Made by a program: the position numbers and the translations under genes
Part shown: positions 1-8,659 of the stretch, piece by piece
Position numbering within the stretch: position 1 is the stretch's first letter
How the letters are laid out: each line of letters starts with the position of its first letter
The notes under the pieces: generated by a model
Told to the model about the DNA's origin: nothing
Seen by the model: the letters and a program-made list of their open reading frames with translations, nothing else
Database searches by the model: none
Source of the DNA: a virus
Taxonomy: Duplodnaviria > Heunggongvirae > Uroviricota > Caudoviricetes
Strand: one strand, 5' to 3'
IMG/VR virus record: IMGVR_UViG_2681813273_000011
DNA length: 8,659 nucleotides

Positions 1-44
1 ATTATCTGAACATAAAACACTATCAATAAGTTGGAGTCATTACC
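1..44. mobile_element. IS1 terminal inverted repeat; element body lies off the left edge of the window
   Basis: Bases 1-44 (attatctgaacataaaacactatcaataagttggagtcattacc) match the IS1 end GGTAATGACTCCAACTTATTGATAGTGTTTTATGTTCAGATAAT in reverse complement, as recalled from memory. Flanking sequence starts at 45. Confidence 0.85.
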
Positions 45-347
45 CGATATCCTGCTGAGAACATAAACACCCACGGATCGAGGCGTACGCTATCATGTTG
101 CTGTGCACCGCCCAGTTTATAATTGGCGATGGTATCGATATCCATGTACCACACTGACATGTTTTAAAAAATGCAATAAGACATTGTATCTGAAAGAAAA
201 AACAGGATTTTGAGGCGCTTTTTCATACCGTTTTCCGTGTTTTTAACTGCCTGATTTTATTGAAATCTTTTTTAGTTTTGCAGAAAGGATTTTTTGCTCG
301 ATCGCTTTAATTTTATACATTCCTGATAACGGAAATTTTTTTGCCCG

Positions 348-377
348 TTGACAGTTTTTGTTCTCCGGGGCTATATT
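348..377 (+). promoter_or_regulatory. sigma70-like promoter upstream of the rha-family gene
   Basis: TTGACA at 348-353, 18-bp spacer, TATATT at 372-377. Predicted start near 384-385, giving a ~235-nt leader before the ATG at 620. Confidence 0.45.
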
Positions 378-439
378 CCTCACACAACCGCAAAATCGGT
401 TGTCGGGATTGGCGTCTCGGATAACATCACAACGCATAG

Positions 440-459
440 CCGCGTTTGCGGTTTTTTTT
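440..459 (+). terminator. Terminator-like or attenuator hairpin inside the rha leader
   Basis: ccgc-gttt-gcgg short stem-loop followed by T8 (452-459). An upstream accgcaaa (388-395) is complementary to tttgcggt (445-452), so an alternative pairing is possible. The stem is short, so strength is uncertain. Confidence 0.3.
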
Positions 460-558
460 GCGTTAAGCATTGCCACATTCGCATTATGGTGGGGCGTGCA
501 GGGGCGGAGAAATCCGCGCCGGGTTTTGTGATGACCGGTTACGCCAACCCTGTACGTC

Positions 559-608
559 TCACCACCTCCCTGATTGGCGTCAGAGGTGGTGATCATCCAA
601 TTAATTGG
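559..608 (+). promoter_or_regulatory. 10-bp inverted repeat plus 12-bp perfect palindrome overlapping the rha ribosome-binding site; candidate operator or translational control element
   Basis: tcaccacctc (559-568) and gaggtggtga (583-592) are exact reverse complements around a 14-nt loop. ccaattaattgg (597-608) is a perfect palindrome ending in the GGAG Shine-Dalgarno (607-610). Confidence 0.35.
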
Positions 609-619
609 AGTCATCACAT

Positions 620-1177
620 ATGAATACAGCTATAACTTTTTCTAACGAGTCACCAAAAGTCTTTTTCAAAGATGGTCGCCTGGTTACCACCTCTCAAGCT
701 GTTGCCGACTACTTCGATAAACAACATAAACACGTTTTAGCTAAGATTGACACACTCGACTGCTCTCCCGAATTTACATCAGCCAACTTTTCGGCCGATG
801 TTCAGACTGTCGAAATTGGCAACGGCGCAGAACGTGAATCACGATGCTACCTGATCACAAAAGACGGCTTCATGTTCCTCGTAATGGGATTTACTGGCAA
901 AAAAGCAGCCAGACTAAAAGAAGCTTACATTGAAAAATTTAACGCAATGGAAGAAGAACTCCACAAACGTCCTCCTGCAGCACAAAACTCCCCCGCCCCA
1001 AATAATGGATGCGCATTACTGATCCACTTCGATAAACACGGTCAGGTCGAGTTCACAGAAAAAGTCCCCGCCGATGCGATGGTATGCACTCTGGAACGGT
1101 TTAAATTTTATCTGGAGCAACATGGGTGGATCGTTGCCCGTAAAGAACAATTGGTGGAAAGGTTGATGCGGTTTTAA
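620..1177 (+). CDS. Phage regulatory protein, Rha family (antirepressor-like)
   Basis: ORF track frame 605..1177. I place the start at ATG 620 because GGAG sits 9 nt upstream, giving MNTAITFSNESPKVFFKDGRLVTTSQAVADYFDKQHKHVLAKIDTL. The N-terminal region resembles the Rha family as I recall it. Stop TAA at 1175-1177. Confidence 0.75.
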   Translation: MNTAITFSNESPKVFFKDGRLVTTSQAVADYFDKQHKHVLAKIDTLDCSPEFTSANFSADVQTVEIGNGAERESRCYLITKDGFMFLVMGFTGKKAARLKEAYIEKFNAMEEELHKRPPAAQNSPAPNNGCALLIHFDKHGQVEFTEKVPADAMVCTLERFKFYLEQHGWIVARKEQLVERLMRF

Positions 1178-1303
1178 TGAATGCAAAACCCCGGATGATC
1201 ACCGAGGTTAATTTTATCGAGCGTGATTGCCGCTAATCGCCATCGCTCTGATTGAGCGTAAATCATTCAGGTTATTCAGTTCTTCCTTCTGCTCTCGCTG
1301 ACG

Positions 1304-1478
1304 TCAATAAATCCCATCATTGCGATCAACCTCATCCTTAACCATTGATGCGAGCAGTTCTTCCAGTTTCTGCGCTGACAGCTTTACCTGGTGATCTTCA
1401 GCATCTTCCCGGGCTATTGTGGTTCGCGCAGTGGCTGATTTTGCTGACATCACCACAGGGGGCAGACGGACCATTGAA
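1304..1478 (-). CDS. Hypothetical small protein (about 57 aa), convergent with rha
   Basis: Minus-strand ORF (track 1304..1585). A plausible start is the ATG at 1478 with GGAGG about 10 nt upstream (MVRLPPVVMSAKSATARTTIAREDAEDHQVKLSAQKLEELLASMVKDEVDRNDGIY). No recognisable family. Confidence 0.25.
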
Positions 1479-1540
1479 CCATGGCCTCCGGAACAAATAA
1501 GGGCAAAAATAACAACCACTATCGAAAGCTCACAAACTAA

Positions 1541-1574
1541 CCGCAGCACGTTCCTGCATACGACGTGTCTGCGG
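1541..1574. repeat. Conserved hairpin element, copy a (imperfect); likely terminator downstream of the minus-strand tfa remnant
   Basis: ccgcagcacg - 13-nt loop - cgtgtctgcgg. Same family as the hairpins at 3968-4000, 5868-5900 and 4707-4739, with a conserved loop (ttcYtgcWtaMga). Confidence 0.5.
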
Positions 1575-1588
1575 CATAATCCCAATGA

Positions 1589-1822
1589 TTACTCCCTGAC
1601 AGGATTTGCAGGCCACTCAATATCAGGTGCAGTTGATGTATCAACACGATTCAACAATACCCGATATTTATTCCATGCCTCCAGCAACGATCTTTCTTCC
1701 TCCGTTGCGATTTCCAGATCTACAGCATCCTGCAGTGGCGCAATATACTCACTAAATTCCTGGATGTAGAACTGTGTGGTGACGGTCTTCCAGCCATTCG
1801 GCTCCTGCTGTATCGAAGCATA
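1589..1822 (-). pseudogene. tfa: Tail fibre assembly protein (Tfa) C-terminal remnant, no start codon
   Basis: Minus-strand frame reads ...[61 protein letters not shown]. This aligns with the C-terminus of the intact tfa' in this window (...[45 protein letters not shown]). An in-frame stop lies upstream (plus-strand cta at 1823-1825). Confidence 0.65.
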
Positions 1823-1885
1823 CTAGGCTATTTCAATATCGCTATGCTGCGGCAGCATTTAACCCCTTGTAATTCATCGCCATAA

Positions 1886-1914
1886 TTGATTTAATTCACA
1901 AATAAAACTATAAT
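1886..1914 (+). promoter_or_regulatory. sigma70-like promoter of methyltransferase cassette, copy 1
   Basis: TTGATT (1886-1891), 17-bp spacer, consensus TATAAT (1909-1914) directly abutting the ATG at 1915. Confidence 0.5.
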
Positions 1915-2366
1915 ATGGTGAAATTAATGAAAAAAAACACAGATGATGGGGCTAAAATTTACACACCACTTACCCTAAAGCTTTATGACTGGTGGGTTTT
2001 GGGAGTATCAAATCGGCTTGCATGGGGATGTCCTACAAAGGAACACCTTCTTCCACACTTTCTGGAACATTTAGGTAACAACCATCTGGATATTGGTGTT
2101 GGAACTGGGTTTTACCTTACTCACGTACCTGAGAGTAGTCTGATATCTTTAATGGATTTGAACGAAGCTAGCCTGAACGCGGCATCTACAAGGGCTGGGG
2201 AATCAAAAATTAAACATAAAATTAGCCATGATGTTTTTGAACCTTATCCCGCGGCGTTACATGGTCAATTTGATTCCATTTCCATGTTTTACCTTCTTCA
2301 CTGCCTGCCTGGAAATATATCTACAAAAAGCTGTGTAATACGCAATGCGGCGCAGGCCTTAACTGA
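1915..2366 (+). pseudogene. Class I SAM-dependent methyltransferase, copy 1, truncated after codon 150 by an IS110-family fragment
   Basis: Identical to copies 2 and 3 through 2366, then diverges. The remainder of track ORF 1915..2529 is read-through into antisense IS sequence. Confidence 0.8.
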
Positions 2367-2987
2367 ACCCCATGAACCAGAAGAAACGATTTCAGACGTT
2401 GCCTTGCATGCCGTAAATCATCGCGGGCAGATGCCCATGCCCGGGCCAAATCCCGGAATGCCTCATCTTCAATGCCGGGTACGTAGACAGCAGAAAGATC
2501 TCCTGCACGCAGTGAACGCACAAGTCTGATGGCATCACGGCGATCGGTTTTAACCCGCTCCCCCGGTTTTTTCGGGATAAGTGAGGGGGCGCAGACCATG
2601 CAGTCAAAACCGGATTTCACCAGCCGACGATAAAGTCCATAACCACAGGGCCCCGCTTCATAAACGATACTGACCTGCGATGACTTTGACCTGAGACGTT
2701 TACAAAGATTCTGAATATCAGTAGGTGATGTGCCAATTTTACCCATCAGTTCAACAGGTTCTGAATTGATAGCATAAGCGACAGTAATCGATTCTTTGTG
2801 AACATCTAACCCGACGTACAATGTGTTATTGTTGTTCATGCTGGCCTCCGTGGTGGAAATACCGGGGTGTAGCAACAGCTCACCCATGCGGCTCTGACAA
2901 CGATGTTAACCCGCGTTAAATATCCCACGTTGGCCAGCATCTGTCTCACGGAAAGTCATACTGCCTTACATTGTGTCTGGTTCTTCC
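2367..2987 (-). mobile_element. IS110-family insertion sequence fragment: 5' non-coding leader (2840-2987) plus N-terminal recombinase domain (2367-2839)
   Basis: Minus-strand ORF starting MNNNNTLYVGLDVHKESITVAYA... with KTDRRDA motif is typical of the IS110-family DEDD transposase N-terminal domain. ATG at 2839 with GGAGG 5 nt upstream. About 157 codons remain before the junction with the methyltransferase at 2366/2367. The right boundary at 2987/2988 is inferred from where homology to the other tfa remnants resumes. Confidence 0.75.
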
Positions 2988-3199
2988 GGCCACTCAATAT
3001 CAGGTGCAGTTGATGTATCAACACGGTTCAGCAACACCCGATACTTCTTCCAGGCTTCCAGCAACGAGTTTTCTTCCTCCGTTGCGATCTCCAGATCTAC
3101 AGCATCCTGAAGTGGCGCAATATGCTCACTGAATTCCTGGATGTAGAACTGTGTGGTGACGGTCTTCCAGCCATTCGGCTCCTGCTGTATCGAAGCATA
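2988..3199 (-). pseudogene. tfa: Tfa C-terminal remnant, copy b; its 3' end is replaced by the IS110-family leader
   Basis: Minus frame ...[50 protein letters not shown], then reads into IS sequence. Differs from copy a at 13 positions across roughly 150 bp (1611-1760), then is identical towards the methyltransferase. Confidence 0.65.
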
Positions 3200-3262
3200 C
3201 TAGGCTATTTCAATATCGCTATGCTGCGGCAGCATTTAACCCCTTGTAATTCATCGCCATAA

Positions 3263-3291
3263 TTGATTTAATTCACAAATAAAACTATAAT
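3263..3291 (+). promoter_or_regulatory. sigma70-like promoter of methyltransferase cassette, copy 2
   Basis: TTGATT, 17-bp spacer, TATAAT (3286-3291), identical to copy 1. Confidence 0.5.
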
Positions 3292-3960
3292 ATGGTGAAA
3301 TTAATGAAAAAAAACACAGATGATGGGGCTAAAATTTACACACCACTTACCCTAAAGCTTTATGACTGGTGGGTTTTGGGAGTATCAAATCGGCTTGCAT
3401 GGGGATGTCCTACAAAGGAACACCTTCTTCCACACTTTCTGGAACATTTAGGTAACAACCATCTGGATATTGGTGTTGGAACTGGGTTTTACCTTACTCA
3501 CGTACCTGAGAGTAGTCTGATATCTTTAATGGATTTGAACGAAGCTAGCCTGAACGCGGCATCTACAAGGGCTGGGGAATCAAAAATTAAACATAAAATT
3601 AGCCATGATGTTTTTGAACCTTATCCCGCGGCGTTACATGGTCAATTTGATTCCATTTCCATGTTTTACCTTCTTCACTGCCTGCCTGGAAATATATCTA
3701 CAAAAAGCTGTGTAATACGCAATGCGGCGCAGGCCTTAACTGATGATGGAACTCTATACGGAGCCACAATTCTTGGCGATGGAGTTGTGCACAATAGCTT
3801 CGGTCAAAAACTGATGCGCATTTACAATCAGAAAGGCATCTTTTCAAACACAAAAGATTCCGAAGAAGGCTTAACACATATACTCTCAGAGCATTTCGAG
3901 AATGTTAAAACCAAGGTTCAAGGTACTGTAGTAATGTTTTCCGCTTCAGGGAAAAAATAG
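3292..3960 (+). CDS. Class I SAM-dependent methyltransferase (222 aa), substrate unknown
   Basis: ORF track 3292..3960. Contains a Rossmann-fold motif I (LDIGVGTGF), an acidic residue in ISLMDLNE, motif II-like FDSISMFYLLHCLP and motif III-like LTDDGTLYGATIL. I see no DPPY/NPPY or C5-cytosine motifs, so it is probably not a DNA methyltransferase. An alternative start is the ATG at 3304. Confidence 0.75.
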   Translation: MVKLMKKNTDDGAKIYTPLTLKLYDWWVLGVSNRLAWGCPTKEHLLPHFLEHLGNNHLDIGVGTGFYLTHVPESSLISLMDLNEASLNAASTRAGESKIKHKISHDVFEPYPAALHGQFDSISMFYLLHCLPGNISTKSCVIRNAAQALTDDGTLYGATILGDGVVHNSFGQKLMRIYNQKGIFSNTKDSEEGLTHILSEHFENVKTKVQGTVVMFSASGKK

Positions 3961-3967
3961 CATCCAA

Positions 3968-4000
3968 CCGCAGCACGTTCTTGCTTAAGACGTGCTGCGG
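3968..4000. terminator. Conserved hairpin between the convergent methyltransferase and tfa remnant; probable bidirectional terminator
   Basis: Perfect 10-bp inverted repeat ccgcagcacg / cgtgctgcgg around a 13-nt loop, 8 nt after the methyltransferase stop. The minus-strand side is followed by a T-rich tract. Confidence 0.5.
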
Positions 4001-4005
4001 CATAA

Positions 4006-4095
4006 TCCCAATGATTACTCCCTGACAGGGTTCGTAGGCCACTCAATATCAGGTGCAGTTGATGTATCAACACGGTTCAGCAACACCCGATACTT
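4006..4095 (-). pseudogene. tfa: Tfa extreme C-terminal remnant (about 28 codons), fused to the pin pseudogene
   Basis: Minus frame ...[27 protein letters not shown] with stop (plus-strand tta) at 4006-4008. Homology to copy b ends near 4095. Confidence 0.6.
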
Positions 4096-4341
4096 TTTCT
4101 AGGCTTCCACCACCAGCACGACAAGATGCCGCATACAGTGCCCCAGTCAGTCCAGTTTTCAGACAACCAGTGCGTCACCTTTTTGAAGGCGCTTTAAAGC
4201 ACGTTTTAATCCAGGTCGGCCTGTCCTTGTTCCGCTTAATTTATCTTCAAATATTTGTTCATATCCTGCACAAACAAGAGCGTTTCGTTGCAGGTCTGTA
4301 TTCTGGTCATTTGTTGATACCCTTACATAGCCAATCAGCAC
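4096..4341 (-). pseudogene. pin: Serine DNA invertase (Pin/Gin/Hin family) N-terminal pseudogene
   Basis: GTG start at 4341 with GGGAG upstream. Reads (M)LIGYVRVSTNDQNTDLQRNALVCAGYEQIFEDKLSGTRTGRPGLKRALKRLQKGDALVV*, where the stop replaces the Trp of the conserved VVWKLDRLGRS (tgg to tga). A second in-frame tga follows, and homology ends after about 82 codons. Confidence 0.8.
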
Positions 4342-4395
4342 GCTGAATCTCCCGTCCAAAAGCACAAATCATGCCATGCAGGCCAGAAACCGCCA

Positions 4396-4406
4396 TTATC
4401 TAAAAC
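4396..4406. other. Isolated pix/gix left half-site at the repeat-unit boundary
   Basis: ttatctaaaac is identical to the left half of the full site at 6296-6321. Identity with the downstream copy ends at 4406/4407, one base before the 2-bp core. Confidence 0.55.
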
Positions 4407-4706
4407 AAGATAAAAAGAGACCGAACACGATTCCTGTTTTCGTCAACAAACAATAAAACCCTTTAAAATTAATGCGTTAAATAAATTTACGTTCATCTTT
4501 TAATCCCTGACACGTACCATTGCATATTAATACATTCAACCAGTTACCATTTTTTTCGAGTTTTTTAGAGAAATTTTCGGGAATATTTCAGGTCAATCCA
4601 TGCAGACGCAAGCAATTCCTGTATTGAATAATTCCGTAGCAATTATGTAAAATCATCTCCGGCTGATTTTCATTCAAACTCGCGCTATCGAACATCCATC
4701 AGCCAG

Positions 4707-4739
4707 CCGTGGCACGTTCTTGCATACGACGTGCTACGG
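4707..4739. repeat. Stand-alone copy of the conserved hairpin element in AT-rich DNA
   Basis: ccgtggcacg - ttcttgcatacga - cgtgctacgg: a 10-bp stem with one G-T pair and the same loop family as the tfa-associated hairpins. Followed by a T-rich tract. Confidence 0.45.
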
Positions 4740-4863
4740 TTTCCTTTACGATTTGGGGTTGCGACTTTACCTCTATTGATAATGCATTCCGGCAGAACGT
4801 TCAAATATGAAGTACGATGTTTAACTAACCGAAAAACAAGAACAATACGGTGCAAGCAAGCTA

Positions 4864-4986
4864 TGAGGTAGCCTGAGTTTAACGGACACTCCTTCCTGAA
4901 ATAGAATGGCATCAGAAGGAGCTAATAATGAGCAGAAAAACCCAACGTTACTCTAAAGAGTTCAAAGCCGAAGCTGTCAGAACGGT
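4864..4986 (+). mobile_element. IS3-family (IS600-like) left end, truncated after 123 bp
   Basis: Starts TGAGGTAGCCTGAGTTTAACGGACACTCC..., identical to 8613-8659. An orfA start (ATG 4928, MSRKTQRYSKEFKAEAVRTV) matches my recollection of IS600 OrfA. The sequence switches abruptly at 4986/4987 to the tfa-remnant repeat. Confidence 0.7.
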
Positions 4987-5099
4987 TCATCCAGATCTAC
5001 AGCATCCTGAAGTGGCGCAATATGCTCACTGAATTCCTGGATGTAGAACTGTGTGGTGACGGTCTTCCAGCCATTCGGCTCCTGCTGTATCGAAGCATA
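4987..5099 (-). pseudogene. tfa: Tfa C-terminal remnant, third copy, 3'-truncated at the IS600-like junction
   Basis: Identical to 3087-3199 of copy b apart from the SNP at 5100 noted under the 1900-bp repeat finding. It begins at ccagatctacag directly after the IS fragment. Confidence 0.55.
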
Positions 5100-5162
5100 C
5101 CAGGCTATTTCAATATCGCTATGCTGCGGCAGCATTTAACCCCTTGTAATTCATCGCCATAA

Positions 5163-5191
5163 TTGATTTAATTCACAAATAAAACTATAAT
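5163..5191 (+). promoter_or_regulatory. sigma70-like promoter of methyltransferase cassette, copy 3
   Basis: Identical TTGATT - 17 bp - TATAAT arrangement. Confidence 0.5.
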
Positions 5192-5860
5192 ATGGTGAAA
5201 TTAATGAAAAAAAACACAGATGATGGGGCTAAAATTTACACACCACTTACCCTAAAGCTTTATGACTGGTGGGTTTTGGGAGTATCAAATCGGCTTGCAT
5301 GGGGATGTCCTACAAAGGAACACCTTCTTCCACACTTTCTGGAACATTTAGGTAACAACCATCTGGATATTGGTGTTGGAACTGGGTTTTACCTTACTCA
5401 CGTACCTGAGAGTAGTCTGATATCTTTAATGGATTTGAACGAAGCTAGCCTGAACGCGGCATCTACAAGGGCTGGGGAATCAAAAATTAAACATAAAATT
5501 AGCCATGATGTTTTTGAACCTTATCCCGCGGCGTTACATGGTCAATTTGATTCCATTTCCATGTTTTACCTTCTTCACTGCCTGCCTGGAAATATATCTA
5601 CAAAAAGCTGTGTAATACGCAATGCGGCGCAGGCCTTAACTGATGATGGAACTCTATACGGAGCCACAATTCTTGGCGATGGAGTTGTGCACAATAGCTT
5701 CGGTCAAAAACTGATGCGCATTTACAATCAGAAAGGCATCTTTTCAAACACAAAAGATTCCGAAGAAGGCTTAACACATATACTCTCAGAGCATTTCGAG
5801 AATGTTAAAACCAGGGTTCAAGGTACTGTAGTAATGTTTTCCGCTTCAGGGAAAAAATAG
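5192..5860 (+). CDS. Class I SAM-dependent methyltransferase (222 aa), copy 3
   Basis: ORF track 5192..5860. Differs from copy 2 by one residue (K to R near the C-terminus). Confidence 0.75.
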   Translation: MVKLMKKNTDDGAKIYTPLTLKLYDWWVLGVSNRLAWGCPTKEHLLPHFLEHLGNNHLDIGVGTGFYLTHVPESSLISLMDLNEASLNAASTRAGESKIKHKISHDVFEPYPAALHGQFDSISMFYLLHCLPGNISTKSCVIRNAAQALTDDGTLYGATILGDGVVHNSFGQKLMRIYNQKGIFSNTKDSEEGLTHILSEHFENVKTRVQGTVVMFSASGKK

Positions 5861-5867
5861 CATCCAA

Positions 5868-5900
5868 CCGCAGCACGTTCTTGCTTAAGACGTGCTGCGG
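5868..5900. terminator. Conserved hairpin, probable bidirectional terminator (copy of 3968-4000)
   Basis: Identical 10-bp inverted repeat with 13-nt loop. Confidence 0.5.
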
Positions 5901-5905
5901 CATAA

Positions 5906-5995
5906 TCCCAATGATTACTCCCTGACAGGGTTCGTAGGCCACTCAATATCAGGTGCAGTTGATGTATCAACACGGTTCAGCAACACCCGATACTT
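5906..5995 (-). pseudogene. tfa: Tfa extreme C-terminal remnant (copy of 4006-4095)
   Basis: Identical to 4006-4095. Confidence 0.6.
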
Positions 5996-6241
5996 TTTCT
6001 AGGCTTCCACCACCAGCACGACAAGATGCCGCATACAGTGCCCCAGTCAGTCCAGTTTTCAGACAACCAGTGCGTCACCTTTTTGAAGGCGCTTTAAAGC
6101 ACGTTTTAATCCAGGTCGGCCTGTCCTTGTTCCGCTTAATTTATCTTCAAATATTTGTTCATATCCTGCACAAACAAGAGCGTTTCGTTGCAGGTCTGTA
6201 TTCTGGTCATTTGTTGATACCCTTACATAGCCAATCAGCAC
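5996..6241 (-). pseudogene. pin: Serine DNA invertase (Pin/Gin/Hin family) N-terminal pseudogene, adjacent to the pix site
   Basis: Identical to 4096-4341, with the same two premature stops. The GTG start at 6241 lies 55 bp from the pix site, as expected for a gin/pin gene next to its crossover site. Confidence 0.8.
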
Positions 6242-6295
6242 GCTGAATCTCCCGTCCAAAAGCACAAATCATGCCATGCAGGCCAGAAACCGCCA

Positions 6296-6321
6296 TTATC
6301 TAAAACCTCGGTTTACGAGAA
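6296..6321. other. pix/gix-type 26-bp crossover site (12-bp half-site, 2-bp core, 12-bp half-site)
   Basis: ttatctaaaacc-tc-ggtttacgagaa. Differs at about 3 of 26 positions from the Mu gix sequence TTATCCAAAACCTCGGTTTACAGGAA as I recall it. Lies between pin and the tail-fibre segment, and the fibre reading frame (NLGLRE...) opens inside it. Confidence 0.75.
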
Positions 6322-7080
6322 CTCGGCACAAGCGGGGAGAAAATACCGTTACTCAGTACAGCGAATACCTGGACTAATCGACAAACATTCAGCGGTGGCC
6401 TTTCTGGTGAACTATCCGGCAATGCTTCTACAGCTGCAAAATTAAAAACTGCCAGGAAAATAAGCAATGTGGCTTTTGATGGTTCCTCCGATATCACATT
6501 AAAAGCAAGTCATGTTGGTGCGTTTGCCTTAGGGAAAACAGGAAGCACCGTTGCGAATGATAAAGCAGTTGGATGGAACTGGAGTAGCGGAGCCTATAAC
6601 GCAACTATTAGTGGTGCATCAACGTTAATTATTCATTTTTATATGGGAGAAGGAAGTTGTCCTGCAGCTCAGTTTCGGATTAATTATAAAAATGGCGGTA
6701 TTTTTTATCGTTCAGCCCGTGATGGTTATGGTTTTGAAGCCGACTGGTCCGAATTTTACACCACCAGAAAACCTTCAGCAGGAGATGTTGGTGCACTGCC
6801 GTTATCTGGTGGTCAACTGAATGGTGCACTGGGTATCGGAACATCCAGTGCTCTTGGCGGTAATTCGATTGTATTGGGTGATAATGACACGGGCTTTAAA
6901 CAAAAAGGCGATGGTAATCTGGATGTTTATGCTAATAACGTCCATGTTATGCGCTTTGTCTCCGGAAGCATTCAAAGTAATAAAACCATAAATATTACGG
7001 GACGTGTTAATCCCTCGGATTACGGTAACTTTGATTCCCGCTATGTGAGAGATGTCAGACTTGGCACACGAGTTGTTTAG
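6304..7080 (+). CDS. Tail fibre variable C-terminal segment (Sv-like), silent orientation, no start codon; ends at an in-frame TAG
   Basis: Open frame from inside the pix site: NLGLRELGTSGEKIPLLSTANTWTNRQTFSGG... to ...RYVRDVRLGTRVV*. ORF track 6469..7080 is the same frame. Homology to the other fibre C-terminus continues for 49 codons past the TAG, to a TAA at 7228-7230. Confidence 0.7.
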   Translation, partial: NLGLRELGTSGEKIPLLSTANTWTNRQTFSGGLSGELSGNASTAAKLKTARKISNVAFDGSSDITLKASHVGAFALGKTGSTVANDKAVGWNWSSGAYNATISGASTLIIHFYMGEGSCPAAQFRINYKNGGIFYRSARDGYGFEADWSEFYTTRKPSAGDVGALPLSGGQLNGALGIGTSSALGGNSIVLGDNDTGFKQKGDGNLDVYANNVHVMRFVSGSIQSNKTINITGRVNPSDYGNFDSRYVRDVRLGTRVV

Positions 7081-7232
7081 ACCATGAAGAAAGGCGTGAT
7101 GTATGAAAAATCAGGCCATGTAATCACGGGGCTTGGTATTATCGGTGAAGTCGATGGTGATGATCCGGCAGTATTCAGACCAATACAAAAGTTAATTAAC
7201 GGAACATGGTATAACGTATCGCAGGTATAATC

Positions 7233-7766
7233 ATGCAGCATTTAAAAAACATTGTCGCAGGTAATCCAAAAACCGTTGAACAATACCAGCTAACAAAGAA
7301 TTTTGATGTTATCTGGTTATGGTCCGAAGATGGAAAAAATTGGCATGAGGAATTAAAAAACTTTCAGGAGGATACAATAAAACTGGCTTACACAGTTGAG
7401 GGAATAATTATTGCTATAGACAAGGATGTATCAGCAATTAATCCAGAAGGTTTAAGTGTCGTTGAGTTGCCTGATATTACAGCAAATCGCCGGGCTGATA
7501 TTTCGGGCAACTGGATGTTCAAAGATGGTGCGGTGATAAAGCGAACTTATACCGAGGAAGAGCAAAGGCAACAAGCGGAAAATGAAAAGCAGAGCCTGCT
7601 GCAGCTCGTCAGGGATAAAACCCAGCTGTGGGACTCTCAGCTACAGCTGGGCATCATTTCCGATGAGAATAAACAAAAATTAACCGAGTGGATGCTCTAT
7701 GCGCAGAAGGTTGAATCCACAGACACCTCCAGCCTGCCAGTAACGTTTCCCGAACAACCAGAATGA
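7233..7766 (+). CDS. tfa: Tail fibre assembly protein (Tfa/U-like chaperone)
   Basis: ORF track 7233..7766, [22 protein letters not shown]... N-terminus is similar to the convergent tfa' and the C-terminus is divergent. The ATG lies 2 nt after the extended fibre stop. Confidence 0.85.
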
Positions 7767-7769
7767 GAG

Positions 7770-7799
7770 AAGGCCCGCTATCGGGCCTTAATTTTTATT
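7770..7799. terminator. Bidirectional rho-independent terminator between the convergent tfa genes
   Basis: 8-bp GC-rich stem aaggcccg / cgggcctt with 4-nt loop (7770-7789), followed by a T-rich tract (aatttttatt). Confidence 0.65.
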
Positions 7800-8322
7800 C
7801 AGGCTTTTGTGGCCATTCAGGATTTGCCGTATCCACACGGCTGACCAGAACACTGTAGCGTTCCCATGCTTCCAGTCGTGTGCGTTCCTCGTCTGTTGCC
7901 ATATTCAGCCTGACAGCTCGTTCCAGCGGCTGGATGACTGATTCAGCTTCGGAAAGCAATGCGGCCTTTTGTGATTCGGCCTGTTGTTGCAGTTCCTGTT
8001 CTGTATATTCCCTCTTTACTACTTTACCATCCAGAAACATCCATTTTCCGTTATTGTCTGCGTGACGATTTGCCGTAATATCAGGAACTTCAACTATGCT
8101 TAGCCCTTCAGGATTAATAGTTGAAACGTCTTTACTGACAGCAACGATGATGTTGTTCTCATCGTAAGCAATTTTTATGGTGTCTGGCTGAAAATTCTTT
8201 TGTTCCTCATACCAGTTTTTGCCATCTTCGCAAAAGAGCCATACCACGCCCGCTTTTTTAGTTAGCTGGTATTGTTCCGGTGTTTTCGGATTCCCGGCCT
8301 TAATATTTTTCAGGTGCATCAT
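7795..8322 (-). CDS. tfa: Tail fibre assembly protein (Tfa'), alternative copy
   Basis: ORF track 7795..8358. Start chosen at ATG 8322 ([22 protein letters not shown]...) by alignment with the plus-strand tfa and its position just after the upstream fibre stop. Confidence 0.85.
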
Positions 8323-8323
8323 C

Positions 8324-8611
8324 TTAAACACTCCCCACGTTGTACCATATTCCCCCAATCAATTTCTGAATTGGCCTTCTGGCAACAGTGTCGACAATAT
8401 CATCCGCATTGCTGTTAATTGCGGCTGTTAAAACATAACCTGACGCATCGCCAAAGCCGTAGTCGCGCCATACGTTTTTATATTCAATGCTGCCAAGACG
8501 AATATCCCGAACGACATGATTATGCAGCCATGTGCTTAACCAGTTGTTTTCCCACACTGAACCATAAATATCGCCACTAGACGCAACTTGCGCACCACTT
8601 CCCAGCGCAAA
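8324..8611 (-). CDS. Tail fibre variable C-terminal segment (S'v-like); 5' portion cut off by an IS600-like insertion
   Basis: Minus frame ...[95 protein letters not shown]. The C-terminus parallels the plus-strand fibre segment (VRDVRLG / [12 protein letters not shown]). The first 9 codons of track ORF 8324..8638 are IS-derived. Confidence 0.75.
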
Positions 8612-8612
8612 T

Positions 8613-8659
8613 TGAGGTAGCCTGAGTTTAACGGACACTCCTTCCTGAAATAGAATGGC
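8613..8659 (+). mobile_element. IS3-family (IS600-like) left end; element continues off the right edge of the window
   Basis: Identical to the first 47 bp of the fragment at 4864. Confidence 0.7.

Follow-up and report, generated by a model that had tools for sequence, protein, structure and literature searches.

Inversion systems of the Din family (Pin/P of e14, Gin/G of Mu, Cin/C of P1 and PinB/B of Shigella boydii) combine 26-bp crossover sites, each with 12-bp half-sites and a 2-bp core, with mirrored alternative fibre C-termini, fibre assembly genes and an invertase gene beside one site. Cin and Gin were reportedly described by Iida and Hiestand-Nauer in 1986 and 1987 as also recombining at secondary ('quasi') sites, with joins in the central dinucleotide and site-like partners. 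At the trpA-ompW locus of E. coli EC958 (ST131), the Phi4_3prime site is active and was shown to invert in trans, despite truncation of the neighbouring invertase gene, which has lost its helix-turn-helix domain (Forde et al., 2014; PMC4134206). In the cryptic DLP12 prophage of E. coli K-12, tfaD-ybcY-tfaX comprises an assembly remnant, an opposite-strand SAM methyltransferase annotated as a pseudogene (ybcY) and the 3' end of an assembly gene.

The stretch of DNA analysed here, an 8,659-nt window (Table 1), resembles each of these systems. Like EC958 Phi4, it represents the trpA-ompW locus with a truncated invertase, and its complete crossover site (6296–6321) is identical to Phi4_3prime, including the ccgcca flank; unlike Phi4, it has lost the second crossover site to an IS600 insertion at 8613, its ompW side is cut by IS1, and the locus occurs three times in the scaffold. 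Compared to Din-family systems, the invertase is cut to ~60–68 N-terminal residues and one site is left. The DLP12 gene order is preserved, with window positions 2989–4112 colinear with K-12 582,001–583,122 at 97.2% identity over 1124 nt; the window methyltransferase, a class I SAM enzyme, differs in having an intact frame (222 aa), and its tfaD-like remnant is fused to the truncated pin gene. Judged by this sequence match, the repeat unit is the known DLP12-type tfaX-ybcY-tfaD' module. The methyltransferase cassette is a dispersed repeat present at several loci, and in Shigella the module lies at several chromosomal positions, often beside ipaH genes; it is found at the end of lambdoid prophage remnants.

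Table 1. Features of the 8,659-nt window.
Feature	Position	Strand	Remarks
IS1 right end (left window edge, contig-end-like)	1–44	.	L005 IS1 terminus has the same sequence
ash and rha of trpA-ompW prophage remnant	348–1177	+	Colinear ST131 annotation; TIGR02681 Rha match
C4/isrK-type antisense RNAs	371–569		Rfam matches
Copy 1, trp-ompW ('A-type') haplotype	1539–2366	+	Hairpin, tail-fibre-assembly remnant, promoter 1886–1914, methyltransferase 5' 452 nt
Joint J1, single A	2367	.	Methyltransferase gene has T or C; ISSso6 base happens to be A
ISSso6 (IS110 family) 5' part plus 19 nt of flank	2368–2987	-	NF033542
Copy 2	2988–4406	+	From tfaX-like remnant to left half-site positions 1–11
Promoters	Copy 2, 3263–3291; copy 3, 5163–5191
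Methyltransferase	Copy 2, 3292–3960; copy 3, 5192–5860	+	K variant in copy 2, R variant in copy 3 (translations)
Hairpins	Copy 2, 3968–4000; copy 3, 5868–5900
tfaD-like 3' remnant, copy 2	4015–4098	-
pin N-terminal remnant	Copy 2, 4162–4341; copy 3, 6062–6241	-
Joint J2, single A	4407	.	Fits neither crossover site (C) nor pphA locus (C)
Distant chromosomal fragment	4408–4863	+	pphA-upstream region 4408–4748; ipaH3 island edge 4749–4863
CssrB sRNA gene	4708–4886	-
IS600 nt 1–125	4864–4988	+	Ends one base before first polymorphic IS600 position
Joint J3, single A	4989	.	Matches neither IS600 (C/T) nor repeat (C/T)
Copy 3	4990–6306	+	tfaX-like remnant through pin remnant; includes tfaD-like remnant
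26-bp invertase crossover site, complete	6296–6321	+	TTATCTAAAACC TC GGTTTACGAGAA
Invertible tail-fibre segment	6469–8638	.	Pfam gp37_C, Caudo_TAP
Fibre C-terminus	6469–7080	+
48-aa ORF			Within tail-fibre segment 6469–8638
Fibre assembly genes	7233–7766; 7795–8358	+; -
Alternative fibre C-terminus	8324–8638	-	Cut by IS600
IS600 nt 1–47 (right window edge, contig-end-like)	8613–8659	+	Full IS600 at same junction in L022

By self-BLAST and direct comparison, copies 2 and 3 match over 1317 bp (3090–4406 and 4990–6306) at a spacing of 1900, with mismatches confined to 3201 (T/C) and 3914 (A/G), the latter being the K/R codon of the translated methyltransferase. These two differences require that at least two distinct cassette sequences exist in the sample. 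An earlier note on this DNA had described the pair and its two SNPs accurately, together with its parts (tail-fibre-assembly remnant, promoter, methyltransferase, hairpin, truncated pin and truncated IS600 left end), but had started the copies at 3087 and 4987, where the sequences read ATC (3087–3089) and TCA (4987–4989). It identified the truncated IS600 end correctly, 4864–4988 being 100% identical to the start of full IS600 copies, and the right boundary that it drew holds: 4396–4406 (TTATCTAAAAC) corresponds to positions 1–11 of the 12-bp left half-site of a 26-bp crossover site that is complete in copy 3. A further partial copy absent from that note, copy 1, matches copy 2 at 98.3% and copy 3 at 99.4% identity (1611/1713–2366).

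The haplotypes of the copies are mosaics of cassettes known from elsewhere. Copy 3 and the sequence after it perfectly match the ipaH-linked cassette in genome L005 over 4990–5896 and the trp-ompW locus of L022, a complete chromosome, over 5645–8659, with the haplotype switch falling within the 252 nt common to both, and the copy 2 haplotype combines alleles from at least three known cassettes. The segment 2368–3200 is identical to L006/L007, and the ISSso6 arrangement with its flank is also found beside an ipaH-linked methyltransferase cassette in complete Shigella genomes. The comparison with related genomes that the earlier note had proposed, seeking a single-copy arrangement, found one: L022, a close relative, is 99.8% identical to 1–2366 and 4990–8659 and carries the module once, flanked by the same IS1 and IS600 junctions (window 1–2366 is colinear with L022 9382–11747, and the L022 IS1 transposase gene ends at 9410). 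L013, L014 and ST131 genomes are likewise single copy. The novel junctions were found nowhere in 5426 complete E. coli genomes and were absent from the species-representative genomes, metagenomes and viral contigs searched, and searches elsewhere with the junction-spanning ORFs gave no matches.

Every joint in the window (2367, 4407 and 4989) consists of exactly one base, which is always A and at J2 and J3 matches neither parent. The last base of copy 1 directly precedes a C/T site (2367, equivalent to 3744 and 5644) that is the only common variable site for ~1 kb; it is T in L005, L014 and L008 and C in L022, L013 and L001, to whose single-copy locus the C allele belongs. Over their first 321 nt, the eight IS600 copies compared vary only at nt 126 (C/T), just past the end of the IS600 fragment before J3, and L022 and L008 each carry both alleles. 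Copy 3 begins one base past a T/C site equivalent to 1712 and 3089. Piece ends therefore adjoin repeat-polymorphic positions at 2366|2367, 4988|4989 and 4989|4990; at 2368, the left end of the middle piece in ISSso6, no polymorphic position was demonstrated in the three copies compared. Because the junctions 2366/2368 and 4988/4990 abut polymorphic repeat positions with a one-base spacer, they look like assembler or gap-filler stops and not like recombination breakpoints. Similar structures occur in sister draft scaffolds of the same region (L009–L012), which are chains of pieces with single-N joints, some of these pieces having their first base immediately after a polymorphic site (L009 at the equivalent of 5101; L010 and L012 at the equivalent of L005 position 8960, with 8959 variable). 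Short-read improvement pipelines leave joints of this type, with a single N after scaffolding and gap filling, a one-base spacer and piece ends one base from polymorphisms, although the window shows A and not N. The breakpoints, polymorphic sites and haplotype mosaics were observed directly; as the given sequence carries no N, we infer that its three spacer As are placeholders for unresolved bases, and the same holds for the software behind the scaffold.

With breakpoints that abut polymorphisms and a single copy in L022, the best reading of the periodicity is an expansion during assembly, the outcome that the earlier note had itself named as contrary to its proposal. We assign a probability of roughly 0.7 to the conclusion that the 1.9-kb repeat consists of contigs chained through the dispersed methyltransferase module rather than of amplified DNA; a tandem array of this kind probably does not exist in the chromosome. 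The window would then derive from short-read scaffolding of a genome from Shigella or enteroinvasive E. coli, with an IS1 end on one side and an IS600 end on the other; it includes 44 nt of IS1 and 47 nt of IS600, as is typical of short-read contigs. Three pieces (1–2366, 2368–4988 and 4990–8659), with a fourth if the middle one is itself joined at J2, would each have been extended into the same dispersed repeat until reads became ambiguous and then concatenated with one base between neighbours, a chaining that would generate both the 1900-bp periodicity and the apparent triplication. The true trp-ompW locus would most likely be single copy, approximately 1–2366 plus 5645–8659, as in L022. If so, decayed prophage tail-fibre regions of IS-rich Shigella can yield convincing false tandem repeats in draft assemblies, for which breakpoints one base from repeat polymorphisms offer a simple diagnostic. 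Four observations speak against chaining: the given sequence carries no N, no polymorphic position was demonstrated at the 2368 end in the three ISSso6 copies compared, J2 adjoins no known repeat polymorphism, and the two differences between copies 2 and 3 call for at least two distinct cassette sequences in the sample.

Joint J2 connects the left half-site to a region upstream of pphA, which lies ~600 kb from the crossover-site locus on the E. coli map. Because J2 (4406|4407|4408) is not beside any known repeat polymorphism and the pphA-upstream fragment is single copy, at least this joint may need a real event; it probably reflects a genuine new adjacency, which the sample would carry as a fixed rearrangement or in a subpopulation. 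Illegitimate joining at or beside the crossover site would have produced it, not a conservative invertase exchange. Its spacer, however, is the A that also marks the two artefact-like joints, and J2 could thus itself result from scaffolding. The extra A was found in 0 of 5416 E. coli genomes.

The earlier note had suggested aberrant Pin-mediated recombination, or a resolved inversion or deletion intermediate, as the source of the breakpoint and had proposed comparing 4407–4418 with secondary gix/pix sites. As a conservative exchange, the Pin proposal is unsupported: identity at J2 stops at position 11 of 12, and position 12, which is C in both parents, is A, leading us to reject J2 as a conservative Pin product. 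On a half-site matrix, the complete site (two inverted 12-bp half-sites flanking a 2-bp core) reaches 31.5 bits, a value attained by ~6 per million background 26-mers. Aligned in the register that J2 implies, the 26-mer upstream of pphA obtains -7.7 bits, within the top 4% of 326,004 background 26-mers; among neighbouring registers the maximum is -5.3 bits (top 2.3%). This partner does not resemble a crossover site. J2 is like Cin/Gin quasi-site recombination in pairing one bona fide crossover site with ordinary chromosomal DNA, but differs from those products in that its join lies outside the central dinucleotide and its partner is not site-like.

An invertase could nevertheless have left a footprint at J2, a reading that is confined to this joint and leaves room for J1 and J3 to be scaffold joints. 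In such a case, a Din-family enzyme supplied in trans would have acted by secondary-site recombination, or by an abortive cut followed by trimming of ~3 nt and joining to pphA-upstream DNA. We consider this unlikely. The site is a proven crossover site, which inverts in EC958 despite the truncated neighbouring invertase (PMC4134206), and the identical left half-site occurs at other loci with two different right halves. The J2 break lies 1 nt from the 2-bp core; with six breakpoints in the window, one would come to lie within 2 nt of it by chance in ~1–2% of cases. Repeat polymorphism explains neither side. An intact site at 6296–6321 is also present in the sample, as expected if the population is partly rearranged or has two pin'-pix copies. 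Against this reading, conservative serine-recombinase exchange keeps all 12 half-site bases and joins in the core, 4% of background positions match or beat the pphA-side score, the shared A recurs here, and the reciprocal junction was not seen within this 8.7-kb window of the source genome. The window also contains no intact serine invertase with a catalytic domain and C-terminal helix-turn-helix, the remnant being a 60–68-aa N-terminal ORF.

We rate lower again the specific proposal of a genuine trans-acting Din-family invertase cut in the decayed prophage, with the end illegitimately joined to pphA-upstream DNA. The rearrangement may be present in only part of the culture. Were this cut true, crossover sites of dead prophages would be an IS-independent source of chromosomal rearrangement in Shigella. 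The half-site/pphA-upstream junction is the only element here that merits bench interest.

Bacterial non-homologous repair is known for single-base insertions and captured filler DNA. The least probable reading is a real triplication in vivo by template switching during replication or by end joining that captured stray fragments, with the truncated ISSso6 and IS600 pieces and the pphA-upstream fragment as junction filler and possibly with selection for methyltransferase dosage: its single-base insertions and filler fit such repair, none of the three junctions offers the long stretch of shared sequence required for a k-mer assembler to make a false join, and copies 2 and 3 bear two private differences, but two breakpoints fall one base before and one falls one base after repeat-polymorphic sites (joint chance ~1e-4 or less), the haplotypes of the copies are exact mosaics of cassettes found at other loci, the complete relative is single copy, and the junctions are missing from every collection searched. 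Amplification of the methyltransferase cassette, as the earlier note had also suggested, fares no better, as 2366, 4988 and 4990 abut repeat polymorphisms; more generally, the mechanisms proposed in that note are unsupported, with two of the three novel junctions beside such positions. A real periodic repeat would be a rare amplification of a prophage 'moron' methyltransferase combined with invertase-driven illegitimate recombination.

Downstream of the crossover site, a pattern search for an inverted second site bounding the tail-fibre segment returned one site only, so that the segment could not invert on its own. Mirrored alternative fibre C-termini with assembly genes are present (Pfam gp37_C and Caudo_TAP), and IS600 interrupts the alternative fibre gene at 8613. 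The recombinase remnant is without its C-terminus, and the ST131 annotation likewise describes the truncated invertase as 'missing C-terminus'. Upstream of the methyltransferase, the promoter (TTGATT-17-TATAAT) has 10 of 12 matches, and the hairpin at 3968–4000 has a folding energy of -23 kcal/mol (z = -5.3).

Self-comparison of the window recovered one long direct repeat, pairing 3090–4406 with 4990–6306 over 1317 bp at a spacing of 1900. An earlier note on this DNA had begun the repeat at 3087 and 4987; its near-identity holds, but the first shared base lies three positions later. The sole mismatches are the two SNPs that the note had reported, 3201 T/C and 3914 A/G, the latter being its K/R codon difference between the two 222-aa methyltransferase ORFs. 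Each listed component (tfa remnants, promoter, methyltransferase, hairpin, and pin remnant) was also recovered, and the truncated IS600-like left end proved to be IS600 nt 1–125, at 4864–4988. The self-comparison additionally returned a third, partial copy absent from that list, at 1611/1713–2366. Below, the methyltransferase modules at 1539–2366 (partial), 2988–4406, and 4990–6306 are called copies 1, 2, and 3, and the joints between parental sequences J1, J2, and J3.

Joints and features of the window; blank cells, nothing to report
Feature	Position	Strand	Details
J1	2366/2367/2368		left parent CCTTAACTGA; spacer A; right parent CCCCATGAACC
J2	4406/4407/4408		left parent CCATTATCTAAAAC; spacer A; right parent AGATAAAAAGAG
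J3	4988/4989/4990		left parent CAGAACGGTTC; spacer A; right parent TCCAGATCTAC
ISSso6 (IS110 family) 5′ part and flank	2368–2987		matches the ipaH-linked cassette in L005–L007 (complete Shigella) exactly
pphA upstream region	4408–4748		conserved, single-copy
ipaH3 island edge	4749–4863		as in enteroinvasive E. coli and S. flexneri
CssrB sRNA gene	4708–4886	−	full-length Rfam match, 121 bits, ‘chromosome-encoded Shigella sRNA B’
Window ends	left 44 nt; right 47 nt		inside IS1 (left) and IS600 (right)
Promoter-like TTGATT-17-TATAAT	immediately 5′ of methyltransferase gene
Strong 33-nt hairpin	3′ of methyltransferase		−23 kcal/mol, z = −5.3
Tail-fibre-assembly remnants	either side of methyltransferase		Rfam ‘IS009’ matches; Caudo_TAP products in related loci
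Serine recombinase N-terminal remnant			60–68 aa

The methyltransferase unit is not new: over 2989–4112, its identity to the tfaX-ybcY-tfaD 3′ region of DLP12, a cryptic prophage of K-12, is 97.2%. Many prophage remnants of lambdoid, P2-like, and Mu-like type carry genes for identical methyltransferase proteins at their ends. In complete Shigella genomes, the cassette immediately precedes ipaH genes at two loci, dinI...mlrA, where it adjoins a full ISSso6, and zinT. The cassette is a dispersed repeat. E. coli ST131 and many other genomes have the entire locus in single copy, flanked by trpA and a truncated ompW, in the order ash, rha, DUF4376 remnant, tfa′, methyltransferase, tfa′, pin′, crossover site, and invertible tail-fibre genes. 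This locus is prophage Phi4 of E. coli EC958, and window positions 6290–6321 exactly equal the Phi4 3′ crossover site, ccgccaTTATCTAAAACCTC GGTTTACGAGAA (Forde et al., PMC4134206). The Phi4 segment inverts despite the truncation of its adjacent invertase gene (Forde et al., PMC4134206), and therefore an enzyme acts in trans. Among the loci compared, one left half-site occurs with either of two right halves, which is the pattern expected if the crossover site is in use. In the window, tail-fibre segment 6307–8659 is locked and its second crossover site gone, because IS600 cuts in at 8613, where it interrupts the alternative fibre C-terminus; this junction is also present in the complete relative L022. 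All components are known: a DLP12-type module, the EC958 Phi4 switch, IS1, IS600, ISSso6, and the sRNA of the ipaH3 flank.

A search of related genomes for the single-copy arrangement, as the earlier note had advised, found it in L022 and in two further trp-ompW loci, L013 and L014. Copy 1 followed by 5645 onward rebuilds this single-copy locus; 5645–8659 is identical to the trp-ompW locus of L022, which shares both the left IS1 junction and the right IS600 junction of the window. Positions 4990–5896 are identical to the ipaH-linked cassette of L005, and the haplotype switch in copy 3 falls within the 252 nt common to the L005 and L022 matches. Copy 2 and its left flank are identical to L006/L007 over 2368–3200; beyond 3200, the alleles at 3201, 3744, and 3914 are characteristic of three different cassettes, and the trp-ompW exit follows. 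In draft scaffolds encoding the same proteins (L009–L012), pieces of this region are strung together with single Ns. A piece in L009 starts one base after the counterpart of 5101, a polymorphic site, and pieces in L010 and L012 start at L005 position 8960, where the preceding base, 8959, varies among ISSso6 copies. We rejected L010 and L012 as a real two-module locus with an intervening ISSso6, since they are single-N scaffolds with a false join at an 11-nt shared word, and left both out of the evidence for a real arrangement.

At J1, J2, and J3, exactly one base, always A, separates two parental sequences that are otherwise perfect; this base fits neither parent at J2 or J3. Copy 1 stops at 2366; one position further along the cassette, the single-copy trp-ompW locus (L022, L013, and L001) has C and other cassettes have T. 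The IS600 piece stops at nt 125, one base before nt 126, which is C or T and alone varies within the first 321 nt of eight IS600 copies from six genomes; both alleles are present within single genomes. Copy 3 starts one base past a T/C site that separates the trp-ompW type of tfa remnant from the ipaH-linked type. Biological breakpoints have no reason to track polymorphisms among repeat copies; read-based extension halts exactly there. None of the three joints turned up elsewhere, whether the junction ORFs were looked up as exact proteins or genome, metagenome, and viral collections were scanned with the DNA.

We read the window as a scaffold of three or four contigs, with a probability of about 0.7. 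Each contig would have run on into the dispersed methyltransferase module before all were set end to end, with the single A's representing unresolved bases; the window sequence as given contains no N. Tail-fibre inversion regions are known to yield artefactual assembly duplications, as Forde et al. (PMC4134206) warned. The 1.9-kb periodic repeat with a half-site boundary, which had first attracted notice, is most probably not a chromosomal feature.

J2, unlike J1 and J3, has no known repeat polymorphism adjoining either side. Because of this, because the pphA-upstream fragment is highly conserved and present only once, and because a 581-bp piece beginning in unique DNA has no reason to form a separate contig, J2 is likely a real novel adjacency in the sample, beside an intact copy of the site. 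A pphA-locus variant with the extra A was present in 0 of 5416 E. coli genomes and 0 of three S. flexneri drafts, and the pphA-ipaH3 locus is intact in these drafts. A search for a pphA-upstream paralogue diverging at 4408 turned up none, paralogues being confined to 4700–4839.

Conservative exchange by a serine recombinase retains all 12 half-site bases and joins within the TC core. At J2, the match to the half-site stops at position 11; the next base, position 12, is C in both parents and A in the window. With a matrix built from 11 real half-sites, the true crossover site scored 31.5 bits, whereas the pphA-side 26-mer in the implied register scored −7.7 bits, a value matched or beaten by 4% of 326,004 background positions; the 4407–4418 side, which the note had proposed to test for resemblance to a secondary site, is not site-like. 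Both testable features of a conservative Pin product, join position and partner resemblance, fail. The coincidence that is left is the position of the break, 1 nt away from the core, in a site for which cutting in trans is established; its chance is ~1–2% given six breakpoints. This coincidence sustains an invertase-made break followed by illegitimate joining as a minority reading, which we consider unlikely. J2 creates TTATCT-AAAACA-AGATAA at 4396–4413, in which the outer half-site hexamer is repeated perfectly in inverted orientation over its 6 nt, across a spacer of 6 nt where the site has 14; the AGATAA already belongs to the sequence upstream of pphA.

Other origins of the repeat or its junctions were rejected. 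IS-mediated duplication by recombination between full IS copies does not fit, as only truncated IS pieces are present and the truncations coincide with polymorphic sites. Simple homologous tandem duplication through the flanking tail-fibre-assembly remnants (73–145 bp direct repeats) would not leave junctions outside those repeats. Ligation chimeras of a dA-tailed library (frag-A-frag-A-frag) would arise from random shearing, which would not put ends beside repeat polymorphisms, and k-mer collapse or expansion is dismissed because the joined sequences share ≤3–6 nt.

The first ~23 nt of the CssrB model align within the IS600 left end, and the curated family therefore seems to begin inside IS600 and to run outward, in the direction of the ipaH3 flank. 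Rfam detected no SdsR/RyeB sRNA in the filler. One GC-rich hairpin, equal to the 3′ stem-loop of the CssrB model, occurs at every module boundary (1540–1574, 3968–4000, 4708–4741, and 5868–5900). In complete Shigella genomes (L005–L007 and L035), ipaH genes lie directly 3′ of this hairpin, which may be a prophage-end or attachment-site remnant common to ipaH islands. ISSso6, annotated as an IS110-family RNA-guided transposase, directly follows a hairpin copy in complete genomes (L005 8240–9700), replacing ~36 nt of the tfa remnant; this position may reflect a preferred target. In the minus-strand tail-fibre-assembly remnant ORF, T at 3201 (copies 1 and 2) gives a TAG stop, and C at 5101 (copy 3) leaves the ORF open, with an 89-aa Caudo_TAP product in L005–L007. 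The Rfam ‘IS009’ sRNA family matches 1632–1835 and 3009–3212 (− strand), plainly tail-fibre-assembly coding remnants, and may represent a gene fragment rather than an RNA gene. At 371–569 (+ strand), adjoining ash (348–623) and rha (620–1177), Rfam matched an isrK-like RNA and C4 antisense RNA above gathering scores (72 and 76 bits) and c4-a1b1 targets at 43.8 bits, slightly below the 46.7-bit gathering score; these matches identify an immI-like immunity module of P1/P7 type within the trpA-ompW prophage remnant.
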